Source of the DNA: Escherichia coli
GTDB lineage: Bacteria > Pseudomonadota > Gammaproteobacteria > Enterobacterales > Enterobacteriaceae
NCBI RefSeq assembly: GCF_003018255.1
Contig: NZ_CP027440.1
DNA length: 64,000 bases
Strand: one strand, 5' to 3'
The notes under the pieces are model-generated. The model worked only from the letters and a program-made list of their open reading frames with translations, did no database searches and was not told the origin of the DNA. The stretch's first letter is position 1. Each line of letters starts with the position of its first letter. Shown here one piece after another: positions 8,833-62,470 of this stretch. A program made the position numbers and the translations under genes.

Positions 8833-11445
8833 ATGACTCAACAGCCACAAGCCAAATACCGTCACGATTATCGTGCGCCGGATTACCAGATTACTGATAT
8901 TGACTTGACCTTTGACCTGGACGCGCAAAAGACGGTCGTTACCGCGGTCAGCCAGGCTGTCCGTCATGGTGCATCAGATGTTCCGCTTCGTCTCAACGGC
9001 GAAGACCTCAAACTGGTTTCTGTTTATATTAATGATGAGCCGTGGACCGCCTGGAAAGAAGAAGAGGGCGCACTGGTCATCAGTAATTTGCCGGAGCGTT
9101 TTACGCTTAAGATCGTTAATGAAATTAGCCCGGCGGCGAATACTGCGCTGGAAGGGCTTTATCAGTCAGGCGATGCGCTTTGCACCCAGTGTGAAGCCGA
9201 AGGTTTCCGCCATATTACGTATTATCTCGACCGCCCGGATGTGCTGGCGCGTTTTACCACCAAAATTATTGCCGATAAAACCAAATATCCCTTCCTGCTT
9301 TCCAACGGTAACCGCGTTGCGCAAGGTGAACTGGAAAATGGACGTCATTGGGTACGGTGGCAGGACCCGTTCCCGAAACCGTGCTACCTGTTTGCGCTGG
9401 TGGCAGGCGACTTTGATGTGCTGCGCGACACTTTCACCACGCGTTCTGGTCGCGAAGTAGCGCTGGAGCTGTATGTCGATCGTGGCAACCTTGATCGTGC
9501 GCCGTGGGCAATGACCTCGCTGAAAAACTCCATGAAATGGGATGAAGAACGCTTCGGCCTGGAGTATGACCTCGACATCTATATGATCGTCGCGGTGGAT
9601 TTCTTCAATATGGGCGCAATGGAGAATAAGGGGCTGAATATCTTTAACTCCAAATATGTGCTGGCCCGCACCGACACCGCCACCGACAAAGATTACCTCG
9701 ATATTGAACGCGTTATCGGCCATGAATATTTCCATAACTGGACCGGCAACCGTGTCACCTGTCGCGACTGGTTCCAGCTCAGTCTGAAAGAAGGTTTAAC
9801 CGTCTTCCGCGATCAGGAATTCAGCTCTGACCTTGGTTCCCGCGCGGTAAACCGTATCAATAATGTGCGCACCATGCGCGGATTGCAGTTTGCAGAAGAC
9901 GCCAGCCCGATGGCGCACCCAATTCGCCCGGATATGGTCATTGAAATGAACAACTTCTACACCCTGACCGTTTACGAGAAGGGCGCGGAAGTGATTCGTA
10001 TGATCCACACTCTGCTTGGCGAAGAAAACTTCCAGAAAGGGATGCAGCTCTATTTCGAGCGTCATGATGGTAGCGCAGCGACCTGTGACGACTTTGTGCA
10101 GGCGATGGAAGATGCGTCGAATGTCGATCTTTCCCATTTCCGCCGTTGGTACAGCCAATCCGGCACGCCGGTTGTGACTGTCAAAGACGACTACAATCCG
10201 GAAACTGAGCAGTACACCCTGACCATCAGCCAGCGCACGCCAGCTACGCCGGATCAGGCAGAAAAACAGCCGCTGCATATTCCGTTTGCCATCGAACTGT
10301 ATGATAACGAAGGCAAAGTGATCCCGTTGCAGAAAGGCGGTCATCCGGTGAATTCGGTGCTGAACGTCACCCAGGCTGAACAGACCTTTGTTTTTGATAA
10401 TGTCTACTTCCAGCCGGTGCCTGCGCTGCTGTGCGAATTCTCTGCGCCAGTGAAACTGGAATATAAGTGGAGCGATCAGCAACTGACCTTCCTGATGCGT
10501 CATGCGCGTAATGATTTCTCCCGTTGGGATGCGGCGCAAAGCCTGCTGGCAACCTACATCAAGCTAAACGTCGCCCGTCATCAGCAAGGGCAGCTGCTGT
10601 CTCTGCCGGTGCATGTGGCTGACGCTTTCCGCGCGGTGCTGCTCGATGAGAAGATTGATCCAGCGCTGGCGGCAGAAATCCTGACGCTGCCTTCTGTCAA
10701 TGAAATGGCTGAACTGTTCGATATCATCGACCCGATTGCTATTGCCGAAGTACGCGAAGCACTCACTCGTACTCTGGCGACTGAACTGGCGGATGAGCTA
10801 CTGGCTATTTACAACGCGAATTACCAGAGCGAGTACCGTGTTGAGCATGAAGATATTGCAAAACGCACTCTGCGTAATGCCTGCCTGCGCTTCCTTGCTT
10901 TTGGTGAAACGCATCTGGCTGACGTGCTGGTGAGCAAGCAATACCATGAAGCAAACAATATGACCGATGCGCTGGCAGCGCTTTCTGCGGCGGTTGCTGC
11001 ACAGCTGCCTTGCCGTGACGCGCTGATGCAGGAGTACGACGACAAGTGGCATCAGGATGGTCTGGTGATGGATAAATGGTTTATCCTGCAAGCCACCAGC
11101 CCGGCGGCGAATGTGCTGGAGACGGTGCGTGGCCTGTTGCAGCATCGCTCATTTACCATGAGCAACCCGAACCGTATTCGTTCGTTGATTGGTGCGTTTG
11201 CGGGCAGCAACCCGGCAGCGTTCCATGCCGAAGATGGCAGCGGTTACCAGTTCCTGGTGGAAATGCTTACCGACCTCAACAGCCGTAACCCGCAGGTGGC
11301 TTCACGCCTGATTGAGCCGCTGATTCGCCTGAAACGTTACGATGCCAAACGTCAGGAGAAAATGCGCGCGGCGCTGGAGCAGTTGAAAGGGCTGGAAAAT
11401 CTCTCTGGCGATCTGTACGAGAAGATAACTAAAGCACTGGCTTGA
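8833..11445 (+). CDS. pepN: aminopeptidase N (M1 family)
   Basis: 870 aa; GAMEN and HEYFHNWTGN zinc-binding motifs visible. Confidence 0.97.
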   Translation: MTQQPQAKYRHDYRAPDYQITDIDLTFDLDAQKTVVTAVSQAVRHGASDVPLRLNGEDLKLVSVYINDEPWTAWKEEEGALVISNLPERFTLKIVNEISPAANTALEGLYQSGDALCTQCEAEGFRHITYYLDRPDVLARFTTKIIADKTKYPFLLSNGNRVAQGELENGRHWVRWQDPFPKPCYLFALVAGDFDVLRDTFTTRSGREVALELYVDRGNLDRAPWAMTSLKNSMKWDEERFGLEYDLDIYMIVAVDFFNMGAMENKGLNIFNSKYVLARTDTATDKDYLDIERVIGHEYFHNWTGNRVTCRDWFQLSLKEGLTVFRDQEFSSDLGSRAVNRINNVRTMRGLQFAEDASPMAHPIRPDMVIEMNNFYTLTVYEKGAEVIRMIHTLLGEENFQKGMQLYFERHDGSAATCDDFVQAMEDASNVDLSHFRRWYSQSGTPVVTVKDDYNPETEQYTLTISQRTPATPDQAEKQPLHIPFAIELYDNEGKVIPLQKGGHPVNSVLNVTQAEQTFVFDNVYFQPVPALLCEFSAPVKLEYKWSDQQLTFLMRHARNDFSRWDAAQSLLATYIKLNVARHQQGQLLSLPVHVADAFRAVLLDEKIDPALAAEILTLPSVNEMAELFDIIDPIAIAEVREALTRTLATELADELLAIYNANYQSEYRVEHEDIAKRTLRNACLRFLAFGETHLADVLVSKQYHEANNMTDALAALSAAVAAQLPCRDALMQEYDDKWHQDGLVMDKWFILQATSPAANVLETVRGLLQHRSFTMSNPNRIRSLIGAFAGSNPAAFHAEDGSGYQFLVEMLTDLNSRNPQVASRLIEPLIRLKRYDAKRQEKMRAALEQLKGLENLSGDLYEKITKALA

Positions 11446-11460
11446 TACTTTTGAGCCAAA

Positions 11461-11612
11461 ATGCCGGATGCGACGCTTGACGCGTCTTATCAGGCCTACA
11501 AGTCCGTTGAAAATGCTGGTTTTGTAGGCTGGATAAGGCGTTCACGCCGCATCCGGCAGCCGTGCCCAAATGCCTGATGCGACGCTTGACGCGTCTTATC
11601 AGGCCTACAATC
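11461..11612. repeat. REP/BIME cluster (three REP units, alternating orientation)
   Basis: gccggatgcgacgcttgacgcgtcttatcaggcctaca at 11463-11500 and near-identical copy at 11572-11610; inverted REP gtaggctggataaggcgttcacgccgcatccggcagc at 11524-11560. Confidence 0.8.
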
Positions 11613-11650
11613 CGTTGAAACTGCTGGTTTTGTGTGCCACATCCGGCATA

Positions 11651-12418
11651 TTAACCATGACGCCGAATCGGTTGTTCAGAGTGCCCACGCTGCATCACCC
11701 GTTGCAAAACTTCCGCTTCCAGCTCCGCTAATCGCACCGACCCTAACCGGCGCGGACGGGGGATATCCACCGTCAAATCCAGACCAATTTTTCCCTCTTC
11801 AATTAACAATACCCGGTCAGCCATTGCTACCGCTTCGCTCACATCATGCGTCACCAACAGTACGGTAAAGCCGTGCTCCTGCCAAAGTGACACAATCAAA
11901 TCCTGCATCTCGAGCCGAGTCAGGGCGTCCAGCGCCCCGAGCGGTTCATCAAGCAATAATAAACCCGGTCGATGAATTAACGCTCTTGCCAGCGCCACAC
12001 GCTGTTTCTGCCCGCCAGAAAGTGCGGCAGGCCATTCCCCTGCGCGGTTCTCCAGTCCTACTGCAGCCAACGCCCGACGCGCGGCATCGCGCCACTGGCC
12101 TTTAAGGCCTAACCCAACGTTATCAATCACCGATTTCCACGGTAGCAGACGCGCATCCTGAAACATCATTCGCGTGTCTTCCTGAATCTCAGCCAGCGGT
12201 GTGGTGCCCGCTAACACGTCGCCTGCGGTTGGCGTTTCCAGACCTGCCAGCAGGCGCAGCAGGGTACTTTTGCCACCACCGCTGCGGCCCACCACCGCCA
12301 CAAACTGACCTGCCGGAATATGTAAATCCAGTTGGTTCAGGACGATATTTTCCGCGTATTGTTTGCTTACTGCATTGAGCAACAATGGTGTGCCCTGGTT
12401 CAGACGAGCAGTATTCAT
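11651..12418 (-). CDS. ssuB: aliphatic sulfonate ABC transporter ATP-binding protein
   Basis: 255 aa; Walker [18 protein letters not shown] signature. Confidence 0.95.
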
Positions 12419-15887: not shown

Positions 15888-16123
15888 ACTCTCTCCTTAT
15901 AACCAATTGTTCTTGTTTTGTTAACATTGATAACAATTCGGTCAGTCTGACAGAGGGCGTCCGCGAGTCGAAATGATTTATCTGAGGAAGAAAAGCCAAA
16001 AAAAGCATAAAAAAAGCGCAATAAGAAAACGTTTGCTATTTATTGCCGCAGGTCAATTCCCTTTTGGTCCGAACTCGCACATAATACGCCCCCGGTTTGC
16101 ACACCGGGAATCCAGGAGAGTTC

Positions 16124-17134
16124 ATGTACTACCCCTTCGTTCGTAAAGCCCTTTTCCAGCTCGATCCAGAGCGCGCTCATGAGTTTACTTTTCAGCAATT
16201 ACGCCGTATTACCGGAACGCCGTTTGAAGCACTGGTGCGGCAGAAAGTGCCTGCGAAACCTGTTAACTGCATGGGCCTGACGTTTAAAAATCCGCTTGGT
16301 CTGGCAGCCGGTCTTGATAAAGACGGGGAGTGCATTGACGCGTTAGGCGCGATGGGATTTGGATCGATCGAGATCGGTACCGTCACGCCACGTCCCCAGC
16401 CAGGTAATGACAAGCCGCGTCTCTTTCGTCTGGTAGATGCCGAAGGTTTGATCAACCGTATGGGCTTTAATAATCTTGGCGTTGATAACCTCGTAGAGAA
16501 CGTAAAAAAAGCCCATTATGACGGCGTTCTGGGTATTAACATCGGCAAAAATAAAGATACGCCGGTGGAGCAGGGTAAAGATGACTATCTGATTTGTATG
16601 GAAAAAATCTATGCCTATGCGGGATATATCGCCATCAATATTTCATCGCCAAATACCCCAGGATTACGCACACTGCAATATGGCGAAGCGCTGGATGATC
16701 TCTTAACCGCGATTAAAAATAAGCAAAATGATTTGCAAGCGATGCACCATAAATATGTGCCGATCGCAGTGAAGATCGCGCCGGATCTTTCTGAAGAAGA
16801 ATTGATCCAGGTTGCCGATAGTTTAGTTCGCCATAATATTGATGGCGTGATTGCAACCAATACCACGCTCGATCGTTCTCTGGTTCAGGGAATGAAAAAT
16901 TGTGATCAAACCGGTGGCTTAAGTGGTCGTCCGCTTCAGTTAAAAAGCACAGAAATTATTCGCCGCTTGTCACAGGAATTAAACGGTCGCTTACCGATCA
17001 TCGGTGTTGGCGGCATTGATTCGGTTATCGCTGCGCGTGAAAAGATTGCTGCGGGGGCCTCACTGGTGCAAATTTATTCTGGTTTTATTTTTAAAGGTCC
17101 GCCGCTGATTAAAGAAATCGTTACCCATATCTAA
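16124..17134 (+). CDS. pyrD: dihydroorotate dehydrogenase (quinone)
   Basis: ORF track 16097..17134; start at ATG 16124 giving [21 protein letters not shown]. Confidence 0.95.
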
Positions 17135-42995: not shown

Positions 42996-43083
42996 TGGCG
43001 GAAGCGCAGAGATTCGAACTCTGGAACCCTTTCGGGTCGCCGGTTTTCAAGACCGGTGCCTTCAACCGCTCGGCCACACTTCC
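42996..43083 (-). tRNA. serT: tRNA-Ser (anticodon UGA), 88 nt including encoded CCA
   Basis: minus strand reads GGAAGTGTGGCCGAGCGGTTGAAGGCACCGGTCTTGAAAACCGG...GGTTCGAATCTCTGCGCTTCCGCCA; long variable arm; anticodon loop CUUGAAA. Confidence 0.95.
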
Positions 43084-50666: not shown

Positions 50667-51803
50667 ATGTTTGATTATGAAACATTGCGCTTCATCTGGT
50701 GGCTGCTGATTGGCGTGATCCTGGTGGTCTTTATGATATCCGACGGATTTGACATGGGGATCGGCTGTCTGCTGCCGCTGGTGGCGCGTAATGATGATGA
50801 ACGTCGGATAGTGATAAACAGCGTTGGCGCGCACTGGGAAGGCAATCAGGTCTGGTTAATCCTCGCAGGTGGCGCATTATTTGCCGCCTGGCCCAGAGTG
50901 TATGCAGCGGCGTTTTCCGGCTTTTATGTGGCGATGATTCTGGTGCTGTGCTCGCTGTTCTTCCGCCCGCTGGCCTTTGATTATCGCGGAAAAATCGCCG
51001 ATGCACGCTGGCGTAAAATGTGGGATGCCGGACTGGTCATCGGCAGTCTGGTGCCGCCGGTAGTCTTCGGTATCGCCTTCGGCAACTTGCTGCTCGGCGT
51101 GCCGTTTGCCTTCACACCGCAATTACGCGTGGAATATCTCGGCAGTTTTTGGCAACTGCTGACGCCATTCCCTTTATTGTGCGGATTGCTCAGCCTTGGG
51201 ATGGTGATTTTGCAAGGTGGCGTCTGGTTACAACTGAAAACTGTTGGTGTGATTCATCTGCGTTCACAGCTGGCGACTAAACGCGCTGCACTACTGGTGA
51301 TGCTGTGCTTTTTGCTGGCGGGTTACTGGCTGTGGGTCGGTATTGATGGCTTTGTACTGCTCGCCCAGGATGCTAACGGTCCTTCCAATCCGTTAATGAA
51401 ACTGGTGGCAGTGCTACCTGGTGCCTGGATGAATAATTTCGTCGAATCGCCCGTTTTGTGGATCTTCCCGCTGCTGGGGTTCTTCTGCCCATTGCTGACG
51501 GTGATGGCGATTTATCGTGGTCGCCCGGGTTGGGGATTTTTGATGGCGTCATTGATGCAATTTGGCGTGATTTTCACGGCAGGCATCACGCTGTTCCCCT
51601 TTGTCATGCCGTCAAGCGTGAGTCCGATCTCCAGCCTGACGTTGTGGGACAGCACTTCCAGTCAGCTGACGCTGAGCATTATGTTGGTAATCGTGCTGAT
51701 ATTTTTGCCCATTGTGTTGCTCTACACTCTCTGGAGCTACTACAAAATGTGGGGGCGCATGACGACAGAAACTCTCCGCCGTAACGAAAACGAGCTGTAC
51801 TAA
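50667..51803 (+). CDS. appB: cytochrome bd-II ubiquinol oxidase subunit II
   Basis: 378 aa; [23 protein letters not shown]. Confidence 0.95.
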
Positions 51804-51908: not shown

Positions 51909-51987
51909 CGAACGTAAGCCTGATGTGGCGCATTAGCATCTCATCAGGCAATCAATAATGTCAGATATGAAAAGCGGAAACATATCG

Positions 51988-53286
51988 ATGAAAGCGATCT
52001 TAATCCCATTTTTATCTCTTCTGATTCCGTTAACCCCGCAATCTGCATTCGCTCAGAGTGAGCCGGAGCTGAAGCTGGAAAGTGTGGTGATTGTCAGTCG
52101 TCATGGTGTGCGTGCACCAACCAAGGCCACGCAACTGATGCAGGATGTCACCCCAGACGCATGGCCAACCTGGCCGGTAAAACTGGGTTGGCTGACACCG
52201 CGCGGTGGTGAGCTGATCGCCTATCTCGGACATTACCAACGCCAGCGTCTGGTGGCTGACGGATTGCTGGCGAAAAAGGGCTGCCCGCAGCTTGGTCAGG
52301 TCGCGATTATTGCTGATGTCGACGAGCGTACCCGTAAAACAGGCGAAGCCTTCGCCGCCGGGCTGGCACCTGACTGTGCAATAACCGTACATACCCAGGC
52401 AGATACCTCCAGTCCCGATCCGTTATTTAATCCCCTAAAAACTGGCGTTTGCCAACTGGATAATGCGAACGTGACTGACGCGATCCTCAGCAGGGCAGGA
52501 GGGTCAATTGCTGACTTTACCGGGCATCGGCAAACGGCGTTTCGCGAACTGGAACGAGTGCTTAATTTTCCGCAATCAAACTTGTGCCTTAACCGTGAGA
52601 AACAGGACGAAAGCTGTTCATTAACGCAGGCATTACCATCGGAACTCAAGGTGAGCGCCGACAATGTCTCATTAACCGGTGCGGTAAGCCTCGCATCAAT
52701 GCTGACGGAGATATTTCTCCTGCAACAGGCACAAGGAATGCCGGAGCCGGGGTGGGGAAGGATCACTGATTCACACCAGTGGAACACCTTGCTAAGTTTG
52801 CATAACGCGCAATTTTATTTACTACAACGCACGCCAGAGGTTGCCCGCAGTCGCGCCACCCCGTTATTGGATTTGATCATGGCAGCGTTGACGCCCCATC
52901 CACCGCAAAAACAGGCGTATGGTGTGACATTACCCACTTCAGTGCTGTTTATTGCCGGACACGATACTAATCTGGCAAATCTCGGCGGCGCACTGGAGCT
53001 CAACTGGACGCTTCCAGGTCAGCCGGATAACACACCGCCAGGGGGTGAACTGGTGTTTGAACGCTGGCGTCGGCTAAGCGATAACAGCCAGTGGATTCAG
53101 GTTTCGCTGGTCTTCCAGACTTTACAGCAGATGCGTGATAAAACGCCGCTGTCATTAAATACGCCGCCCGGAGAGGTGAAACTGACCCTGGCAGGATGTG
53201 AAGAGCGAAATGCGCAGGGCATGTGTTCGTTGGCAGGTTTTACGCAAATCGTGAATGAAGCACGCATACCGGCGTGCAGTTTGTAA
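51988..53286 (+). CDS. appA: periplasmic phytase / acid phosphatase (histidine acid phosphatase family)
   Basis: ORF track 51958..53286; start at ATG 51988 giving MKAILIPFLSLLIPLTPQSAFA signal; RHGVRAP active-site motif. Confidence 0.95.
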   Translation: MKAILIPFLSLLIPLTPQSAFAQSEPELKLESVVIVSRHGVRAPTKATQLMQDVTPDAWPTWPVKLGWLTPRGGELIAYLGHYQRQRLVADGLLAKKGCPQLGQVAIIADVDERTRKTGEAFAAGLAPDCAITVHTQADTSSPDPLFNPLKTGVCQLDNANVTDAILSRAGGSIADFTGHRQTAFRELERVLNFPQSNLCLNREKQDESCSLTQALPSELKVSADNVSLTGAVSLASMLTEIFLLQQAQGMPEPGWGRITDSHQWNTLLSLHNAQFYLLQRTPEVARSRATPLLDLIMAALTPHPPQKQAYGVTLPTSVLFIAGHDTNLANLGGALELNWTLPGQPDNTPPGGELVFERWRRLSDNSQWIQVSLVFQTLQQMRDKTPLSLNTPPGEVKLTLAGCEERNAQGMCSLAGFTQIVNEARIPACSL

Positions 53287-53353: not shown

Positions 53354-53390
53354 GCGTAGACCGGAAAAGGCGTTCACGCCCCATCCGGCC
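53354..53390. repeat. single REP element
   Basis: gcgtagaccggaaaaggcgttcacgccccatccggcc, REP-like palindrome between convergent appA and etk. Confidence 0.7.
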
Positions 53391-61773: not shown

Positions 61774-62058
61774 ACAAATTCCTTACTGAAAATACTGCGC
61801 TGCACTATACGGGGTTAATAAAATAAAGCCAGCGATATTTAAGACCGCCGGACGGCTAAAATAAAATTTGCTTAATCTCAATTATCATGCGTTAATAGCT
61901 GCGTCGGTTTGAAAGACAGACAGCATACAAAGTAGTTTACTAAAGCAGTTCTCATTATCAGGCATTATCCCCTTCTTTTGAGTCTCTCTCCTGAACACTA
62001 AGTAGTTTCTGTACTAAAGCCCTGTTTGCCGAAAGGCCCAAAATGAAGGAAGTAAAAT

Positions 62059-62271
62059 ATGTCTAATAAAATGACTGGTTTAGTAAAATGGTTTAACGCA
62101 GATAAAGGTTTTGGCTTTATCACTCCTGATGATGGCAGCAAAGACGTTTTCGTCCATTTCACCGCCATCCAGAGCAATGAATTCCGCACGCTGAACGAAA
62201 ATCAGAAAGTTGAATTTTCTATTGAGCAGGGGCAACGTGGTCCCGCGGCAGCGAACGTTGTTACGCTCTAA
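62059..62271 (+). CDS. cspG: cold shock protein CspG
   Basis: 70 aa; [23 protein letters not shown] (RNP1 motif). Confidence 0.95.
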
Positions 62272-62470
62272 GGTTGCCGTTATTACTCCACATCTCCATT
62301 TCCGCTGTCCATGTTGTCATGGTTCACAGTACCGCACATCGGCATTCGATGTGACGGAGCGAAATCCTTTAGGGGCAAAGTGTATTTTTTGTAAATCGAC
62401 GATGATCACCTTTGATAACGTCGCGCTGCAAATACGCACTGACCATGCGCCGCTGGATTTCACAAAATAA
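62237..62470 (+). CDS. ymcE: small Cys-rich protein YmcE; start codon uncertain (non-ATG)
   Basis: ORF track 62210..62470; contains ...[21 protein letters not shown]...; no in-frame ATG near 5' end, GTG at 62237 chosen. Confidence 0.5.

Follow-up and report, generated by a model that had tools for sequence, protein, structure and literature searches.

The convergent gap between pepN and ssuB, 205 nt from stop codon to stop codon (positions 11446-11650 of the window, by which we mean the whole 64,000-nt stretch of Escherichia coli contig NZ_CP027440.1 that was analysed), holds an E. coli REP array that is an ordinary member of its repeat family. Three intact REP hairpins and a truncated fourth lie within these coordinates. 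Taking the evidence as a whole, we regard it as highly probable that the element is a tandemly duplicated BIME-2, ancestral in Escherichia, that would serve in both directions as a hairpin block or attenuator at 3' ends, and also as a gyrase site. The functional part of this reading, that is, the 3'-end block or attenuator and the gyrase site, is likely by analogy with other arrays of the BIME-2 class.

A preliminary description, made from the letters of the window, had placed two near-identical 38-bp units around an inverted REP in the convergent pepN-ssuB gap. The gene pair, the inverted middle unit and the formal searches reported below all agree with it, and the coordinates that it gave for the units were right to within 1-2 nt. 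However, the duplicated unit proved to be 108/109 nt rather than 38 bp, and the array to end at 11648 rather than 11612. The description had also missed the truncated fourth REP, the tandem duplication and the presence of two REP classes (Z2 in the outer units, Y in the middle one).

Structure and class of the array

pepN (aminopeptidase N) occupies 8833-11445 on the + strand, with its TGA stop at 11443-11445, and ssuB (the ATPase of an aliphatic sulfonate ABC transporter) occupies 11651-12418 on the - strand. Both assignments rest on the ORF list and on how RefSeq annotates E. coli strain 104, to which 301 nt of the window are 100% identical and in which pepN and ssuB are annotated with no gene between them. 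The ssu genes are switched on only when cells are starved of sulfate. Mechanical ORF calling draws frames of 46-53 aa through the array (11429-11569 and 11496-11642 on the - strand, 11570-11731 on the + strand). We set these aside as candidate genes: RefSeq has no gene at this place in the identical genome, and they are likely to be repeat artefacts, of a kind that automatic annotation could miscall as genes. A search of the gap and its surroundings for promoter-like sites found none, and one for intrinsic terminators (a GC-rich hairpin directly followed by a U tract) returned no terminator-like site on either strand of 11000-12100. Besides naRNA4, the Rfam families matched within 10800-12300 at E<=10 were eukaryotic and at chance level (mir-3130, SOX2OT). 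Elsewhere in the window, Rfam matches above the gathering score were a PyrD leader at 16056-16129 (+ strand, 97.9 bits), a tRNA at 42999-43083 (- strand, 57.5 bits) and a cspA-type thermoregulator 5' UTR at 61903-62325 (+ strand, 155.1 bits).

The preliminary description had staked its reading on a match to the REP consensus in a formal search, and such matches were obtained by several routes. The Rfam model RF02564 (naRNA4), a covariance model of the Y+Z2 unit, matched 11527-11605 on the + strand over its full length (1-77) with 82.2 bits, compared with a gathering score of 59.5. A profile made from the 100-nt units of the K-12 array REP325 (taken from L006:3743-4399) and run over the window with nhmmer matched 11525-11610 at E=3.1e-22. 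Megablast of the region found copies in 5425 of the 5426 complete E. coli genomes, with a median of at least 34 places per genome. Within the 64-kb window, a degenerate REP pattern matched twice, both times in the array, against 0.00 expected from 100 shuffles, and the REP tail motif CTTATCMGGCCTAC matched five times against 0.43 expected, with three of the five matches in the array.

The three intact units are imperfect palindromes of 35-38 nt, whose hairpins, on either strand, lie between -16.6 and -21.8 kcal/mol (z -2.5 to -6.0). According to Ton-Hoang et al., the hallmarks of a REP are a GTAG 5' of the stem foot, a two-base AA/GC mismatch in the stem and, in Z-type units and not in Y, the sequence TGCC|TGAT (PMC3333891). 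The GTAG/CTAC foot is seen in REP1, REP2 and REP3 and is absent from the remnant at 11632-11648. In folds of the - strand both Z2 units carry the AA/GC mismatch as a 2x2 internal loop (GAUAAGAC / GUCGCAUC); in the Y unit REP2 it appears as a bubble (GAUAAGGCG / CGCCGCAUC) in the + strand fold, the - strand fold being shifted by a local C-A mismatch. The Z signature TGCC|TGAT matches the published description (PMC3333891). The window holds two further single REPs, away from the array: a short Z1-like unit at 51918-51949 (GCCTGATGTGGCGCATTAGCATCTCATCAGGC; nhmmer E=1.8e-4) between the ORFs 50667-51803 and 51958-53286, and a Y-like unit with GTAG at 53357-53390 (nhmmer E=8.6e-6) in the convergent gap of the ORFs ending at 53286 and 53406.

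Read along the window, the array consists of a Z2 unit, a 24-nt linker, an inverted Y unit, a 12-nt S linker, a second Z2 unit, a 23-nt linker and a truncated Y unit. REP1 (11462-11499, + strand, Z2-type) carries CTAC at 11496-11499 (GTAG on the - strand), matches the REP pattern with 0 mismatches and the nhmmer profile at E=2.4e-8, and forms a hairpin of -16.6 kcal/mol. A T->G change at 11466 (TGCCGGATG here, TGCCTGATG in most other alleles) adds a mismatch to this stem, which compares with -21.3 kcal/mol for REP3, and takes away the C|T of the type-I RAYT cleavage site (site as in PMC3333891). Junction sequences of other genomes identify TGAC at 11478-11481, in the loop of REP1, as a target of IS1397; in the window the site is empty. 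The stem of REP1 begins 17 nt past the pepN stop codon. A rule reportedly put forward by Liang, Rudd and Deutscher in 2015, in connection with REP position and translation, speaks of '15 nt from the stop codon'.

Tail-to-tail linker 1 (11500-11523, 24 nt, AAGTCCGTTGAAAATGCTGGTTTT) is locus-specific sequence and leads into REP2 (11524-11558, + strand), a Y-type unit that is inverted relative to REP1 and REP3. REP2 carries GTAG at 11524-11527, agrees with the REP325 Y consensus at 33 of 35 bases, and forms a hairpin of -18.7 kcal/mol on the + strand and -17.9 kcal/mol on the - strand; being the reverse complement of the outer units, it makes inverted-repeat pairs with them. The short, head-to-head S linker (11559-11570, 12 nt, GCCGTGCCCAAA) has the position and length known from REP325 and from the yjjV-yjjW array. 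REP3 (11571-11608, + strand, Z2-type, CTAC at 11605-11608) is covered by the Rfam naRNA4 match (11527-11605) and the nhmmer match (11525-11610), and its hairpin reaches -21.3 / -21.8 kcal/mol (z -5.97 / -5.06). Together, REP2, the S linker and REP3 make up one complete BIME-2 unit. Tail-to-tail linker 2 (11609-11631, 23 nt), delimited by its sequence and by the direct repeats, is followed by the REP4 remnant (11632-11648, + strand, GTGTGCCACATCCGGCA), a truncated Y that has GTGT in place of GTAG and ends 2 nt short of the stop codon of ssuB. The remnant forms only a weak 7-bp hairpin (-8.7 kcal/mol), and it is truncated in all Escherichia alleles examined.

The repeat finder returned three successive direct-repeat matches across the gap. 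The first pairs 11455-11501 with 11564-11610 (47 nt, 96% identical), the second, past a 1-nt indel, 11503-11525 with 11611-11633 (23 nt, 96%), and the third 11546-11558 with 11636-11648 (13 nt, 92%). The gap is therefore a tandem duplication of a 108/109-nt unit. Copy A (11455-11563), defined by the direct repeats, contains Z2, the tail-to-tail linker, the inverted Y and the S linker; copy B (11564-11650), defined by the direct repeats and by alignment of alleles, has an internal deletion of ~20 nt in its Y unit.

Three features bear on the class of the array. The outer units combine the Z signature TGCCTGAT (present in REP3, and in REP1 of other strains) with the Z2 body of REP325, from whose Z2 they differ by one loop base, and the middle unit has the Y sequence GCCGGATGCGGCG. 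The Y+Z2 pairing is that of naRNA4, which is stated to be the 77-nt Y+Z2 unit of the K-12 array REP325 (PMC4550694). The S linker is 12 nt long, as in yjjV-yjjW, and one nt longer than the 11-nt linker of REP325. Finally, the copies stand in tandem, two at 96% identity here and in varying number among strains. Judged by these units and linkers, the array belongs to the BIME-2 class (Z2 and Y alternating, a short S linker, tandem copies) and not to BIME-1, which joins Z1 and Y by an L linker, long and conserved, that carries an IHF site, and which is found in single copy (PMC3333891).

Alleles of the gap and their ancestry

Junction-specific searches over 5426 complete E. coli genomes sorted 5412 of them into four classes. 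The K-12 allele, with a 42-nt gap and no REP, is present in 3166 genomes (58%), and an uninterrupted array in 2060 (38%); in another 146 and 40 the array is interrupted by IS1397 in orientation A and orientation B, respectively. In an evenly spaced sample of 60 genomes, 34 gaps were short, 23 long and 3 interrupted, and the spans of the long ones imply gaps of ~194-209 nt. The alleles have gaps of 42 nt and of 193 to 307 nt, which bears out, at the pepN-ssuB gap itself, the strain-to-strain length variation that the preliminary description had expected of such an array. Comparison of the number of REP units across E. coli genomes, which it had proposed as a check, gave none in K-12 and otherwise two-unit, partial extra and three-unit alleles.

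In K-12 MG1655 the 42-nt gap is without REP and holds a unique 12-bp GC hairpin (CCGAATGGCGGC/GCCGCCATTCGG, -26 kcal/mol on either strand), followed on the ssuB strand by the U-rich tail UUAUUUAU. The K-12 segment (L002:436-513) is about 78 nt long and stands opposite 11448-11685 of the window, and identity resumes near 11686. The last 9 codons of ssuB (~11654-11685) fall inside this segment, and in K-12 the last nine residues of SsuB are recoded, through many nucleotide changes, to ESETRLRKQG. The arrays themselves differ as well. A 12-nt deletion has removed the 5' arm of REP1 from Nissle 1917, one linker is 4 nt longer in strain PSJ-36, strain NA3664 (L005) carries an additional partial REP of 43 nt, and a third complete unit in the GTDB E. 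coli representative (L007) gives a gap of 307 nt.

The preliminary description had also called such arrays hotspots of IS insertion, and at this locus the 1432-bp IS1397 does sit in the REP1 loop of 186 of the 5426 genomes (3.4%; 146 + 40, in both orientations). Annotated IS1397 copies at L003, L004 and L087 have the structure GACGCT[TGAC]-IS-[TGAC]GCGTC, with a TGAC duplication, and the 99.2% identical copy of L005, inserted into that loop the other way round, is flanked by a duplicated TGA. Because both the orientations and the duplications differ, at least two independent insertions of IS1397 have entered this one 5-nt loop. IS1397, a member of the IS3 family, inserts specifically into the loops of BIME palindromic units, as Clement et al. 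(1999) are cited in later papers (PMC3333891, PMC1525189). The 186 genomes conform to this specificity, with insertion exactly in the REP1 loop and a duplication of 3 or 4 bp; the window differs from them in that its site is empty.

A scan for the PepN C-terminus, with one genome per species, gave 80 enterobacterial loci, mostly with pepN-ssuB synteny. The two-unit array with its truncated REP4, together with the SsuB tail of the window, recurs in E. whittamii (198-nt gap), in Escherichia sp. E1V33 (196-nt gap) and in the divergent 'E. coli' E69 (193-nt gap), and E. albertii has a degraded one-unit array in a 115-nt gap. Several Citrobacter species have the window-type SsuB tail with a single Y-like REP. 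Since array and SsuB tail are common to other Escherichia species, their distribution indicates that the array is ancestral in Escherichia and that the K-12 allele, which replaced it, is derived. That the window-type SsuB tail is common to other Escherichia and to several Citrobacter makes the K-12 segment look imported or derived; no donor was found among the 80 loci, where blastn-short of the K-12 gap and ssuB tail matched 17-21 nt only, all inside ssuB. In Enterobacter, Klebsiella and others the gap is occupied by repeat families of their own, and across the Enterobacteriaceae the convergent pepN-ssuB gap is a place that gathers repeats. In Enterobacter and Silvania (L023, L043, L067 and L072) the gap holds a REP of the GCCCGGTGGCGCT..ACCGGGCCTAC type and, beside the end of ssuB, an element of the form CCCTCTCCC..GGGAGAGGGCCGGGGTGAGGGCA; in two species it has grown to 350-533 nt.

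These patterns bear on the possibility that the array is a selfish or neutral repeat, the residue of RAYT-driven REP spread and of tandem duplication, tolerated in a safe convergent gap. Much of the variation described above is what such a repeat would leave: presence in 2060 genomes and absence from 3166, decay in the form of a REP4 truncated in all alleles, the 12-nt deletion in Nissle, the point mutation in REP1 and spacing varied by indels, tolerance of IS1397 insertions, and different, species-specific repeats in the gap of related genera. However, the architecture of the array is kept in several Escherichia species, and the array-less allele has another strong hairpin at the same place, which suggests that the gap needs a structured 3' end. 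Moreover, termination and stability effects have been measured for the BIME-2 class. We see a purely selfish or neutral array as the less likely reading. A selfish origin and a local use are in any case compatible, and both can be true.

Possible roles at the ends of pepN and ssuB

Folded as RNA, the + strand of the gap reaches -96.3 kcal/mol (z = -8.07) and the - strand -95.0 kcal/mol (z = -7.24), and in the minimum-energy fold REP1 pairs with REP2 to give a single long, imperfect hairpin. Since the BIME allele folds on both strands and the K-12 GC hairpin stands at the same place, each allele, BIME or K-12, gives both genes a stable 3' hairpin. We propose that an array from this dispersed family, which is thought to be spread and maintained by the REP-associated tyrosine transposase, would be entered by both converging transcripts, that of pepN and that of ssuEADCB (whose last gene is ssuB), and would fold into stable hairpins in each. 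The hairpins would stop 3'-to-5' exonucleases, shielding the 3' ends of pepN and ssuEADCB, and would also attenuate read-through, in part with the aid of Rho. As DNA, the Y unit and its neighbours would be a likely gyrase site that does not depend on transcription.

Each part of this proposal has a counterpart among characterised members of the class. REP325, a BIME-2, was shown to be a partly Rho-dependent terminator and a stabiliser of upstream mRNA; ~30% of convergent gaps contain REPs, and 306 bidirectional terminators predicted in earlier work include 78 REPs (bioRxiv 10.64898/2026.03.23.713779). BIME-2 are enriched in gyrase cleavage sites, which fall chiefly within Y units (PMC6379681). 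The preliminary description had ascribed gyrase binding and mRNA stabilisation to such arrays, and both would fit a BIME-2 at this locus (PMC6379681; bioRxiv 10.64898/2026.03.23.713779). With one intact Y unit only, the gyrase site here may be weak. The exact array is dispensable, for 58% of E. coli are without it, Nissle 1917 has lost an arm, 3.4% of genomes have an IS in REP1 and REP4 has decayed everywhere. K-12, the host of nearly all REP experiments, is among the strains without the array.

The array might instead work mainly at the DNA level, as a strong gyrase site that removes positive supercoils between the converging units, with the RNA hairpins incidental. We think this unlikely. 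The location in a convergent gap suits such a site, yet convergent transcription is usually low here, the ssu genes being on only under sulfate starvation. Gyrase cleavage in BIME-2 is over-represented, favours Y units and persists after rifampicin, but it occurs in a subset of BIME-2 only, notably the long arrays sucC-sucB and tldD-yhdP (PMC6379681). The array in the window has a single intact Y, and strains with the K-12 allele manage without the array altogether.

The reading as a 3'-end block with an added gyrase site could be carried further, by taking the BIME-2 array and the GC-hairpin segment (with its recoded SsuB tail) as maintained, functionally equivalent bidirectional 3'-end modules that have undergone a natural swap. 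We hold such a swap to be a long shot; if true, the locus, with its IS1397-disrupted and arm-deleted variants included, would be a ready-made allelic series on which to test the effect of REPs on the expression of flanking genes.

It is very improbable that the array is an RNA gene like naRNA4, whose Y+Z2 transcript would bind HU, bridge cruciform DNA and condense the chromosome. The Rfam match at 11527-11605 does exceed the gathering score, and naRNA4 is defined as the 77-nt Y+Z2 unit of REP325 (PMC4550694), but the Rfam model is in effect a model of a BIME-2 unit and so will match any BIME-2. The gap has no promoter-like site in or near it, and nucleoid compaction by REP325/naRNA4 was not reproduced when it was later re-examined with SIM, Hi-C and overexpression (bioRxiv 10.64898/2026.03.23.713779).

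Least probable of all, to the point of near exclusion, is a BIME-1 or RIB/RIP element that binds IHF: the units are Z2 and Y with an S linker in tandem, compared with Z1 and Y with an L linker in single copy for BIME-1 (PMC3333891), and the one point in its favour is a 1-mismatch match to the IHF consensus WATCAANNNNTTR. That match (11608-11620, - strand) is the only one in the array and falls in the second linker, whereas the homologous position in linker 1 has no match. The gap contains no exact match to WATCAANNNNTTR, and in the window 1-mismatch matches number 51 against 55 expected, which is chance level, so we rejected an IHF site in the array. IHF binding is a property of the BIME-1 L linker (PMC3333891), and the array has Z2 rather than Z1 units, linkers of 12 and 23-24 nt and no L linker. 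The IHF binding that the preliminary description had attributed to such arrays thus does not carry over to this BIME-2.

Comparison with known systems

REP and BIME-2 arrays, their variation among strains and their targeting by IS1397 have been known since the 1990s; the pepN-ssuB array is a typical example, and its polymorphisms are of a kind already described for BIMEs. A full-text literature search on the pepN-ssuB locus returned nothing relevant; neither the frequencies of its alleles, nor the replacement allele of K-12, nor the two insertions of IS1397 came up in it. The array is missing from K-12-based REP catalogues and is unannotated in RefSeq, which gives its description a modest value for annotation. 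In addition, the natural allelic series (BIME-2, K-12 hairpin, arm-deleted, three-unit and IS-disrupted) could serve to test REPs as bidirectional terminators and stabilisers between convergent genes.

With BIME-1 (Z1-L-Y; RIB/RIP) the array shares two inverted REPs, one of them a Y, and an extragenic position. BIME-1 differs in its Z1 unit, its long conserved L linker with an IHF site and its single copy (PMC3333891), all three of which are absent here. The likeness to REPIN/RAYT systems lies in the long REP1-REP2 hairpin, in the GTAG and stem mismatch that TnpA-REP needs, and in the CT cleavage motifs (PMC3333891). Unlike those systems, the array has no RAYT gene in or beside it, and REP1 of the window has lost the C|T of the type-I site.

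The BIME-2 array between yjjV and yjjW of E. coli DTU-1 (L090:468-886) also occupies a convergent gap. It is 83-84% identical over Z2-linker-Y-S-Z2, has the S linker GTTGGCGCACAA, and likewise ends in a truncated Y (GTAGGCCGTATCCGGCATG) beside the stop codon of the converging gene, as REP4 does. Arrays may repeatedly decay, or be trimmed, in this manner where they meet the end of a gene. The two arrays differ in that yjjV-yjjW has four units rather than two and a 16-nt linker of other sequence.

REP325, which lies between yjdM and yjdN in K-12 and is the source of naRNA1-6, has the same succession of Y, an 11-12-nt S linker (ACGGTGCCGAC), Z2 and a tail-to-tail linker, repeated in tandem. Its Y agrees with that of the pepN-ssuB array at 33/35 bases, its Z2 is one loop base apart, and both arrays match RF02564. 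In contrast, REP325 consists of six 100-nt units between co-directional genes, whereas the pepN-ssuB array has two 108/109-nt units, one with a truncated Y, between convergent genes and is absent from K-12. The tail-to-tail linkers, 17 nt in REP325 and 23-24 nt here, are unrelated in sequence.
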